Shown here: piece by piece, positions 33,110-35,339 of the stretch | How the letters are laid out: every line of letters begins with the position of its first letter | How positions within the stretch are numbered: the first letter of the stretch is position 1 | Sequence record: SRR2962707_898 | DNA: 35,339 bases | Reading direction: 5' to 3' (one strand) | The notes under the pieces: generated by a model | What the model saw: only the letters and a program-made list of their open reading frames with translations | Databases searched by the model: none | Told to the model about the DNA's origin: nothing | Translations under genes and position numbers: made by a program

Positions 33110-35092
33110 TTAACCCGCTGAAAGTGCTTTGCGTTTGCGCACCAAGTCTGGCGGTGTCGCTTCTTCCACCAATGATGCGATTGCCTCATTCAGCGCCATA
33201 GGCGTTTGATCACGTGAACCAAGACGGCGAATATTGACCGTGTTTTGCTCTGCTTCACGCTGACCAATAACAATAATCACCGGCACTTTTGCCACAGAAT
33301 GCTCACGCACCTTGTAATTGATCTTTTCATTGCGGAAATCGGTCGCAACTTGCATACCAGCATCGCGTAATTGATCGGCAACACCCTGCGCGTAATCATC
33401 GGCATCAGAAGTAATCGTGGCGACAACAACCTGCATTGGCGCAAGCCAAAGCGGGAAATGACCGGCATAGTTTTCCAAGATAATGCCAAGGAAACGCTCC
33501 ATCGAGCCACAAATGGCGCGGTGGATCATAACAGGTTGCTTTTTCTCAGAATCGCTATCGATGTAGAATGCGCCAAAGCGTTCCGGCAGGTTAAAGTCCA
33601 CCTGCGTTGTGCCGCACTGCCATGTCCGGCCGATCGCATCTTTGAGCGTATATTCAAACTTAGGGCCGTAGAACGCGCCCTCGCCTGGATTAATGCCTGT
33701 TTTGATGCGTCCGCCTGATTGCGCCTCAATGTCTTTGAGAACATTCATCATCACTTCTTCAGCGTGATCCCAGTTTTCATCTGAACCAACGCGCTTTTCA
33801 GGGCGAGTAGACAGCAGAACTGTGACTTCCGAAAAGCCAAAATCCTCATACACTGACAAAATCAGCTCATTGATCCGCATACATTCTGCGGCCATCTGCT
33901 CTTCTGTGCAGAACACATGCGCATCATCCTGCGTAAAGCCGCGCACACGCATGAGGCCGTGCAACGCACCTGATGGCTCATAGCGATGTACAACACCAAA
34001 TTCTGCCAAACGAATGGGCAGATCACGGTAGGATTTCAAACCATGTTTGAAAATTTGCACATGGCCCGGACAGTTCATCGGTTTAAGCGCAAATGTGCGC
34101 TGGTCTTCAGCTTCAGGATCGGCAGATTTCACGCCGAACATATTTTCCTTATACCAAGCCCAGTGACCAGATGTTTCCCAGAGGTCAGACACCAACACTT
34201 GCGGCGCATTAACTTCATCATAGGTGCCAGCCAAGCAGCGACGCATATAAGAAACAATCGTTTGGAAAATGCGCCAACCTTTGGCGTGCCAGAACACAAC
34301 ACCCGGCCCTTCTTCCTGAAAATGGAACAAGTCCATCTCACGGCCAAGGCGGCGATGATCCCGCTTTTCCGCTTCTTCAAGCATATGAAGATAAGCGTCC
34401 AGCTCTTTTTGCTCAGCCCATGCTGTGCCGTAAATGCGCGTCAGCATTTCATTGTCTGAATCGCCGCGCCAATAGGCACCAGCCACTTTCATCAATTTAA
34501 ATGCTGTACCGATTTGGCCCGTTGAAGCCATATGCGGACCACGGCAAAGGTCAAACCAATCGCCCTGATAATAGATCTTTAGATCTTCATCGCCTGGGAT
34601 CGCGTCAATCAGCTCAATCTTATAGTTCTCGCCCTTATCGGCAAAAACCTGCTTGGCTTTTTCGCGTGACCAAATTTCTTTGGTAAAAGGCGCATTGCGC
34701 TGAATGATCTCGCGCATTTTCTTTTCAATAAGCGGCAGCTCTTCCTCAGTGAAAGGCTTGTCGCGCTTAAAGTCATAGAAAAAGCCGTTATCGATCACCG
34801 GACCGATTGTTACTTGCGTGCCAGGAAACAGTTCCTGCACCGCTTCGGCCATCACATGCGCAGCATCATGGCGGATAAGCTCAACTGCGCGCGGATCGTC
34901 GCGTGTGACGATTTCTATCGCGCCTGTGCGAATAGGATCGCTTAAATCCTGCATCACCCCATCAAGGGCAATGGCGACAGATTTTTTAGCCAGTGATTTT
35001 GAAATGCCCTCGGCGACATCGCGGCCAGTCGTGCCAGCATCATATTCGCGGATAGAGCCATCGGGAAATGTTAGTGAAATGGCGTTTGCCAT
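33110..35092 (-). CDS. thrS: Threonine--tRNA ligase
   Basis: TGS domain, editing motifs RHDAAH and [31 protein letters not shown], and an anticodon-binding domain; AAGGAG ribosome-binding site. Confidence 0.98.
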
Positions 35093-35107
35093 GGTCTATT
35101 CTCCTTT

Positions 35108-35133
35108 CCAGTCCCGCTTACGAACGCGGGTGG
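35108..35133 (-). promoter_or_regulatory. Candidate thrS translational operator (tRNA-Thr anticodon-arm mimic)
   Basis: The mRNA reads CCA-CCCGC-[GUUCGUAA]-GCGGG-AC-UGG immediately 5' of the SD AAAGGAG. The loop carries CGU, a Thr anticodon. Confidence 0.62.
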
Positions 35134-35150
35134 TTTCATCAATAGCCCTC

Positions 35151-35179
35151 ATCTATTCAATCAAGGCGCGTGAGTAAAG
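35151..35179 (-). promoter_or_regulatory. Putative sigma70 promoter of thrS
   Basis: The minus strand reads CTTTAC-N17-ATAGAT, close to the consensus CTTGAC-N17-CTATAT. Confidence 0.5.
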
Positions 35180-35212
35180 ATGCGAATATGCGTAAAAAAG
35201 CGCATCGCCCAC

Positions 35213-35241
35213 CTTGTGAAGCGCGCGCGGCTTTGCTATCT
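35213..35241 (+). promoter_or_regulatory. Putative sigma70 promoter of the tRNA-Leu gene
   Basis: CTTGTG-N17-CTATCT followed by GC-rich GCGC. Confidence 0.45.
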
Positions 35242-35312
35242 GCGCTCAGCCGGTATTCATATTGGCTTCTACCAAGTTCAAAAGCTGGCTTGCCAGCAAC
35301 AGAACAACAAGT

Positions 35313-35339
35313 GCGGTCGTGGCGGAATTGGTAGACGCG
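35313..35339 (+). tRNA. tRNA-Leu, 5' part only (truncated by the window end; anticodon not visible)
   Basis: GCGGTCG-TG-GCGGAATTGGTAGACGC-G is an acceptor-stem 5' strand plus the D-arm characteristic of bacterial tRNA-Leu. Confidence 0.85.

Follow-up and report, generated by a model that had tools for sequence, protein, structure and literature searches.

A candidate single-hairpin operator in the thrS leader of Rhizobiales that resembles the anticodon arm of tRNA-Thr

Introduction

Can one anticodon-like hairpin be enough for a threonyl-tRNA synthetase (ThrRS) to control its own synthesis? ThrRS autoregulation by tRNA mimicry has a place in textbooks, but what is known of it comes essentially from E. 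coli and its close relatives. The E. coli thrS operator contains two such hairpins, domains 2 and 4, of which domain 2 is proximal to the Shine-Dalgarno (SD) sequence, and the two hairpins bind the two subunits of the ThrRS dimer. According to the accessible parts of three publications, this operator acts by mimicry of the anticodon loop (PMC9976931, PMC11088916, PMC7373986). The available text of one of them adds that the N-terminal region of ThrRS is required for repression in E. coli (PMC7373986).

The question arose from a stretch of DNA of 35,339 nucleotides (record SRR2962707_898; hereafter the window), the last gene of which is thrS. The initial annotation of this locus, made from the sequence alone, described a hairpin at the thrS ribosome-binding site, proposed that it is a one-hairpin version of the E. 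coli feedback loop, and regarded such an element as undescribed in this group of Alphaproteobacteria. A literature search and a comparison with Rfam 15 were consistent with this last point. No thrS operator from Alphaproteobacteria was found in the literature searched, which barely covered subscription journals and in which an older comparative remark could be missed. For the Rhizobiales, the search returned nothing on the regulation of thrS; the mention of the gene in the accessible text of PMC6614838 is a reference to B. subtilis. In the structured-RNA survey papers that the search listed, thrS occurred zero times, and reviews, as far as their available text goes, describe the E. coli case only (PMC11088916, PMC9976931, PMC7373986, PMC3858243, PMC6542539); the first three of these date from 2020-2024. 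The Rfam 15 covariance models yielded no match within positions 34800-35339 at E values up to 10.

Anatomy of the thrS leader

In the window, thrS is an open reading frame of 660 codons on the minus strand (35092..33110). Its product contains TGS (residues 8-61), SAD (172-221), class II core (328-542) and anticodon-binding (554-643) domains and aligned along its whole length with structures of E. coli ThrRS, including the 1qf6 chain and a chain sequence shared with 1kog. The leader contains the hairpin CCA-CCCGC-[GUUCGUAA]-GCGGG-AC-UGG (35133..35108, minus strand), the 3' end of which is separated by 3 nt from the GGAG (35104-35101) of the thrS ribosome-binding site. The features of the gene and leader were assigned as follows.

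33110..35092, minus strand: thrS, threonyl-tRNA synthetase, 660 aa, with the ATG at 35092-35090; the presumed repressor would be encoded by the regulated gene itself
35101..35107, minus strand: Shine-Dalgarno sequence AAAGGAG, unpaired in the predicted fold
35108..35110, minus strand: 3' strand of the outer (lower) helix, UGG, with an invariant U and a nearly invariant G across 114 aligned sequences
35111..35112, minus strand: 3' bulge AC, 2 nt; AC, AG or AU in the same alignment, with the A nearly invariant
35113..35117, minus strand: 3' strand of the inner helix, GCGGG, assigned from the predicted fold and covariation
35118..35125, minus strand: 8-nt loop GUUCGUAA, with CGU at 35122-35120 and the equivalents of tRNA G35 and U36 at 35121 and 35120
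35126..35130, minus strand: 5' strand of the inner (upper) helix, CCCGC, which pairs with 35117-35113 in the predicted fold
35131..35133, minus strand: 5' strand of the outer (lower) helix, CCA, which pairs with 35108-35110; relatives covary from C-G to U-A and from C-G to U.G
35151..35156, minus strand: candidate -10 box ATAGAT, 17 nt after the -35 box, with a putative transcription start near 35144
35174..35179, minus strand: candidate -35 box CTTTAC, part of the motif CTT[TG]A[CT]-N17-[ACG]TAnnn

Relative to the start codon, the hairpin spans -41 to -16 and places its U36-equivalent at -28 from the A of the ATG. The predicted 52-nt leader folded into exactly this hairpin with the SD free (-12.4 kcal/mol, z = -1.99), an energy equalled in 6 of 200 shuffles. 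Sequence and predicted fold agree with the earlier description of a GC-rich stem-loop adjoining the thrS SD. By itself, the fold of the window is only mildly unusual, and the weight of the argument rests on comparative data. A long-range pairing seen in a 66-nt fold (GGCUAUU/AAUAGACC) was rejected: it uses bases 5' of the putative transcription start, relatives are without it, and it is gone from the 52-nt fold.

On visual inspection, the last 22 bases of the window (35318-35339, plus strand) resemble a tRNA gene at its 5' end, with an acceptor stem and a D-arm containing GGTAGA. This fragment is cut by the end of the window and is divergent from thrS. ARAGORN and Rfam reported nothing for 35318-35339, as expected of a fragment, and in five relatives no tRNA gene was present within 1.5 kb of thrS.

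Distribution of the hairpin

We scanned species-representative genomes with the window ThrRS and retained the best 80 loci (69-81% identity). By name, all were Rhizobiales/Hyphomicrobiales, including Rhizobium, Sinorhizobium, Shinella, Mesorhizobium, Phyllobacterium, Bartonella apis, Aureimonas, Roseibium, Pseudovibrio, Bosea, Bradyrhizobium, Afipia, Methylobacterium, Microvirga, Methylocella and Devosiaceae. The representative collection contained no species with a ThrRS closer than 81% to that of the window. The window has a G+C content of 49.9%, which is low given that its ThrRS is most similar (81%) to those of Rhizobiaceae genera.

Two of the 80 loci (L047 and L072) had no upstream DNA and were left out. 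The hairpin preceded thrS in all 78 loci having upstream sequence, always a few bases 5' of the SD. A pattern defined by flank and stem, with the loop unspecified, recovered 77 of the 78; the last (L028) was added by eye, and one extra match far upstream (L059) was discarded. Two forms predominated. Rhizobiaceae-like genomes and the window share CCA-CCCGC...GCGGG-AC-UGG, while Bradyrhizobium-like, Methylobacterium-like and other genomes carry GCUUA-CCUGC...GCAGG-AG-UGAGC. Rarer inner stems were CGGGG/CCCCG, CGCCG/CGGCG and CCCGG/CCGGG.

The survey was extended to a sample of 41 genomes from the order, 40 of which were evaluable (one, G152, gave no ThrRS match), using a covariance model built from 79 sequences (the close relatives plus the window). 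The hairpin was found in 36 of these 40 genomes. The model itself gave 23 matches in 22 genomes: 21 lay directly 5' of the ThrRS match, and another (G182) lay before thrS at a contig end, as confirmed by translation. Among the 18 genomes with thrS and no match to the model, 14 contain a diverged hairpin of the form CUUA-CCUGC-loop-GCAG-N-GA(G/U)-UGAG. It was absent from the thrS upstream regions of four loci whose ThrRS is 61-63% identical to the query (L147, L157, L159 and L161).

Two observations from this sample concern single genomes. The sole model match away from thrS was on contig 18 of G174 (58929-58964, minus strand; 26 bits, E 0.0055). Genome G179 has two thrS copies, 68% (L175) and 64% (L162) identical to the query, and only the former is preceded by the hairpin.

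Within genomes, the model was specific to thrS. The 7-Mb Sinorhizobium genome of locus L007 gave one match, at thrS (150 of about 2,200 first-look candidates scored), and in the window only the thrS site scored (39.5 bits), the next best candidate reaching 11 bits (E 0.8). A further sample of the class was dominated by other alphaproteobacterial orders, and only two of its genomes had a ThrRS exceeding 63% identity. With filters off, the model found no match in 60 thrS leaders of this sample (best E 1.1). Hairpins with GU in the anticodon register occurred in 9 of the 60 loci, a mid-rank value relative to other dinucleotides. The corresponding whole-genome search of 151 genomes was insensitive because its first-look filter scores only 45 candidates per genome; it produced weak matches in G071 and G072, on contigs other than that of thrS, which were discarded. 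Across the genomes searched, we found the element in a single order only, where it is present in all but the most divergent ThrRS lineages.

Two class-sample loci (L098 and L119) each have a lone hairpin with GGU or AGU in the anticodon register, located some 20 nt upstream of a sequence resembling an SD. With overall numbers at chance level, these may be nothing or may be lineage-specific operators.

Covariation of the stem and spacing to the start codon

An alignment of 114 sequences (101 distinct) was used to evaluate base pairing. Standard pairs filled 92.0% of cells, compared with 81.1% when partners were shuffled (0 of 500 shuffles reached the observed value), and pairing fell to 27-45% when partners were slid by 1-3 columns. 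Both sides had changed in 7 of the 10 pairs (reached in 1 of 500 shuffles), for a total of 115 doubly changed cells against 39 expected. The five inner pairs, for example, are kept through CCCGC/GCGGG, CCUGC/GCAGG, CGGGG/CCCCG, CGCCG/CGGCG and CCCGG/CCGGG. Most double changes reflect two clade-level C-G/U-A switches, so independent events are fewer than the cell counts suggest. The same picture of covariation was obtained with 79 sequences, from which RNAalifold recovered the core helix. Now and then the 3' strand contains one extra bulged base. Among non-Watson-Crick cells, G.U (65) far exceeded A.C (10), indicating that pairing is kept on the thrS sense RNA strand and that the element is not a DNA palindrome.

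The position of the hairpin relative to the gene is also constrained. Spacing was counted in 109 loci, three others (L148, L154 and L156) being without a recognizable SD and start. The U36-equivalent lay between -21 and -36 from the start codon, with a mode of -27 and 97 of the 109 loci at 24-30 nt. In 108 of 109 relatives the SD core begins 11-20 nt after this base.

In one sub-group (L152, L154, L155 and L156), GAGAGG comes immediately after the hairpin, and another GC-rich stem-loop comes after that. Here the likely start codon lies about 40-60 nt downstream, so the rule of operator-to-start spacing is broken; L152 and L155 were read by eye. In Bradyrhizobium-like genomes (L049, L050, L058 and L067), ThrRS begins 20-50 codons before the start used in the window, and the operator hairpin precedes this upstream start, not the conserved N-terminus. 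The extension in L049 (1336-1500) contains tandem SDQSK-like repeats.

An anticodon register in the loop

To parse the loops, hairpins were located by flank and stem only, which gave 112 sequences; inspection by eye added L146 and L177. The bases at loop positions -4 and -3 were G and U in 112 of 112 parsed hairpins, and the two read by eye agree (114/114). The U is always exactly 2 nt from the 3' strand, as U36 of a tRNA is followed by positions 37 and 38. In a MAFFT alignment of the first 79 sequences, this G and U were the only invariant columns. In the full 114-sequence alignment they were two of four invariant columns and the sole invariant positions of the loop. GU played no part in finding the 78 close relatives or 15 of the 35 order-sample sequences; the remaining 20 of the 35 came from the covariance model, which rewards it.

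The rest of the loop was permissive. The position equivalent to 34 was C in 85, G in 14, U in 11 and A in 2 of the 112 hairpins, and all four bases occurred at each of the positions equivalent to 32, 33, 37 and 38. Within this variation, U33 was present in 96 of 112 and U37 in 70 of 112. Loops were 8 nt long in 83 cases and 7 nt in 29, with the extra base always on the 5' side.

The three threonine anticodons are CGU, GGU and UGU. At position 34 ThrRS has to tolerate every base, and it reads the remainder of the anticodon, where G35 and U36 are the specific determinants of threonine identity. In the accessible text of one review, threonine identity resides in acceptor-stem pairs and anticodon nucleotides (PMC9976931).

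The last seven bases of the window loop, UUCGUAA, match the anticodon loop in the tRNA-Thr(UGU) of a relative, UUUGUAA, except at position 34, bearing out the resemblance that was originally read from the window. Loss of the loop GU in relatives had been named beforehand as an outcome that would speak against mimicry; instead, GU is kept throughout and the wobble-equivalent position takes four bases. The alignment likewise delivered the stem covariation with an invariant loop GU that had been proposed as a check across Rhizobiales. Mimicry of the tRNA-Thr stem sequence was considered and rejected: the anticodon stem of tRNA-Thr(UGU), GCUGA/UCAGU, the single one compared, is unlike the hairpin stem. 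BLAST searches for the CGU and GGU isoacceptors of relatives recovered none. What is mimicked is a stem of 5 bp and the register of the loop, and no more.

One hairpin or two

We searched for a second hairpin in the 100 nt 5' of the first, admitting stems of at least 4 bp and loops of 7-8 nt. Within the Rhizobiales set, a second hairpin with GU in register occurred upstream in 8 of 110 loci, which ranks 14th of 16 dinucleotides and is chance level. An apparent second hairpin in L007 (CCGG-UCGUUG-CCGG) was set aside as chance on the basis of this count.

As a positive control, we analyzed 60 thrS leaders from non-alpha members of the phylum, with ThrRS 49-54% identical. An E. coli-type hairpin followed by a conserved YACCACU was present in 15 of these 60 leaders (the L218-L255 sample). 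GU was in register in 14 of the 15, with C (7), G (5) or A (2) at position 34. The E. coli example alone thus understates the breadth and variability of the known operator family. When the same finder was applied to these 14 gamma-type operators, it detected a second hairpin with GU in register in 8, about 55-90 nt upstream, and GU was the top dinucleotide (8 loci, compared with at most 2 for any other). Because the finder detects second hairpins in gamma-type operators, their absence in Rhizobiales is real and cannot be blamed on the method. The window also has no room for a second one, its hairpin lying only about 10 nt downstream of the putative transcription start. The single-hairpin layout originally suggested for the window therefore holds across the set, with second hairpins at chance in Rhizobiales (8/110) compared with 8 of 14 in the control.

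Candidate promoter and leader length

The motif CTT[TG]A[CT]-N17-[ACG]TAnnn was found before thrS in 28 of 109 loci; shuffling gave 0.37 expected per round and a maximum of 5. Among these 28 loci, 26 have the CCA form of the hairpin, as does the window. The motif was always 5' of the hairpin, with 17-103 nt between the end of the -10 box and the hairpin, the window having the shortest distance. A scan of the window leader for an E. coli-type consensus promoter called no site. The original reading of a good promoter match at 35151-35179 and a leader of about 50 nt is thus upheld in part: the motif is conserved and implies a leader of about 52 nt, but the match is not one that the E. coli-type scan recognizes. 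The promoter is a candidate supported by its conservation, and the transcription start is placed from it.

Proposed mechanism and alternatives

We consider it likely that the hairpin is a translational operator of thrS which imitates the anticodon arm of tRNA-Thr and through which ThrRS represses itself by way of a single hairpin. As the hairpin is retained across the order, ThrRS probably represses translation of its own mRNA through this one element, where E. coli has two. Computation establishes the structure, its covariation and restriction to thrS, the invariant GU register, the free wobble base, the constant spacing and the lack of a second hairpin; the transcription start, binding by ThrRS and its competition with ribosome and tRNA are inferred. 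When ThrRS is in excess of uncharged tRNA-Thr, its C-terminal anticodon-binding domain would read the loop G and U as equivalents of G35 and U36. Bound ThrRS would keep the 30S subunit off the ribosome-binding site, a proposal based on the location of the hairpin at -41 to -16 and 3 nt from GGAG. By competing for the same site, tRNA-Thr would relieve repression. In such a scheme, the single hairpin would do the work of E. coli domains 2 and 4. Conservation of GU, covariation and specificity for thrS thus speak for the one-hairpin mimicry feedback that the initial annotation had suggested may operate in this alphaproteobacterium. Several findings count against this model: the absence of the hairpin from 4 of 40 order genomes and from the second thrS copy of one genome, the predominance of 8-nt loops (83 of 112) over 7-nt ones, the dissimilarity of the stem to the tRNA-Thr anticodon stem compared, the clade-level origin of much of the covariation, and the recovery of 20 of the 35 order-sample sequences by a model that rewards GU.

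The alternatives differ in which features of the hairpin they would explain. A structural leader element with no link to ThrRS, either a 5' stem-loop that stabilizes the mRNA or a site for another RNA-binding protein or a small RNA, would fit a stable hairpin near the predicted 5' end. However, a stabilizer needs no invariant loop bases, while here only a G and a U are fixed, 2 nt from the 3' strand, with any base as neighbors; a small-RNA partner would require more than two fixed bases; and the hairpin occurs once per genome, at thrS. We regard this explanation as unlikely. Still less probable, in our estimate, is that the loop is read by something other than ThrRS, such as a tRNA-modifying enzyme, or that ThrRS binding has an outcome besides a block of initiation, such as mRNA decay. 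Several enzymes recognize anticodon loops, and the register of this loop is that of an anticodon loop. Against another reader stand the confinement of the element to thrS and the frequencies of U37 (70/112) and C34 (85/112), a preference which, to our knowledge, does not fit readers that need U36-A37 or U33-G34-U35. Against another outcome, the 3-nt distance to the SD fits occlusion of the ribosome.

Two further explanations are less probable again, and equally so. The stem is an inverted repeat just downstream of a candidate promoter and could be a DNA operator bound by a transcription factor, but the excess of G.U over A.C cells (65 vs 10) places the pairing on the sense RNA strand only, the repeat is interrupted by an asymmetric 3' bulge, and the conserved bases are in the loop and not in the arms. 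A transcription attenuator or T-box-like tRNA sensor has precedent in the many bacteria that control thrS with T-box leaders. Yet no Rfam match, including to the T-box family RF00230, was obtained for 34800-35339 even at E values up to 10; the leader is only about 52 nt long; and neither a terminator-like site on its minus strand nor a U tract after the stem was found. Moreover, the loop contains an anticodon, NGU, and not a threonine codon, ACN, so tRNA-Thr cannot pair with it.

Should the preferred reading of a ThrRS-repressed translational operator be correct, the mechanism would extend to rhizobia, methylotrophs and their relatives. It would also set out what such an operator needs at minimum: some 27 nt upstream of the start codon, a helix of 5 bp with U33-N-G35-U36 in register, together with a 3' bulge and a lower helix that is short. 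The 114 sequences would then be a natural mutational series of the positions that ThrRS tolerates, and the element would offer a compact part of 26-36 nt for synthetic feedback control. For annotators, the covariance model describes an element without an Rfam family.

Comparison with known systems

The E. coli thrS operator and the window hairpin are both situated in the thrS leader next to the SD, and the ThrRS of the window has the same set of domains as that of E. coli. Thus, location at the ribosome-binding site, a loop with GU in register and a repressor with N-terminal and anticodon-binding domains are features of the E. coli type that were found here, while a second hairpin and similarity of sequence or profile were not. 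The loops of the E. coli operator are UUCGUGU in the SD-proximal and AUUUGUUG in the distal hairpin; in both groups the loop contains NGU, and two bases separate its U from the 3' strand. Counted from the start codon, this U is at -31 in the SD-proximal hairpin of E. coli (NC_000913.3), where it belongs to CGU, and at -28 in the window. The predicted folds have a matching layout of upper helix, 3' bulge and lower helix. These measure 7 bp, 3 nt and 6 bp in the E. coli SD-proximal hairpin, whose upper helix is capped by UUCGUGU, and 5 bp, 2 nt and 3-5 bp in Rhizobiales. An A-N-U-G following the upper helix is common to both types, a likeness that is suggestive only.

There are also differences. 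The candidate Rhizobiales operator has one hairpin instead of two, its loops are mostly 8 nt, the SD follows within a few bases, and there is no linker domain. The gamma-type YACCACU signature is absent from the alpha hairpins. When applied to the E. coli leader, the Rhizobiales covariance model left the SD-proximal hairpin unscored and aligned to the distal one over its loop only (6.7 bits, E 8.1). Outside bacteria, yeast AspRS, HisRS and other aminoacyl-tRNA synthetases likewise bind their own mRNA at an anticodon-like element, according to the available text of two publications (PMC9976931, PMC6542539); these mimics differ in being eukaryotic and in using other mRNA regions and other mechanisms.

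In light of this comparison, the hairpin may represent a minimal ThrRS operator of the whole Rhizobiales that arose separately from that of E. coli, in which a single anticodon-arm mimic adjoining the SD would suffice for feedback. We advance this wider claim tentatively and rate it at slightly under an even chance. If the separate origin is true, thrS autoregulation by anticodon mimicry would have been invented repeatedly and would be a general bacterial solution rather than an enterobacterial curiosity.
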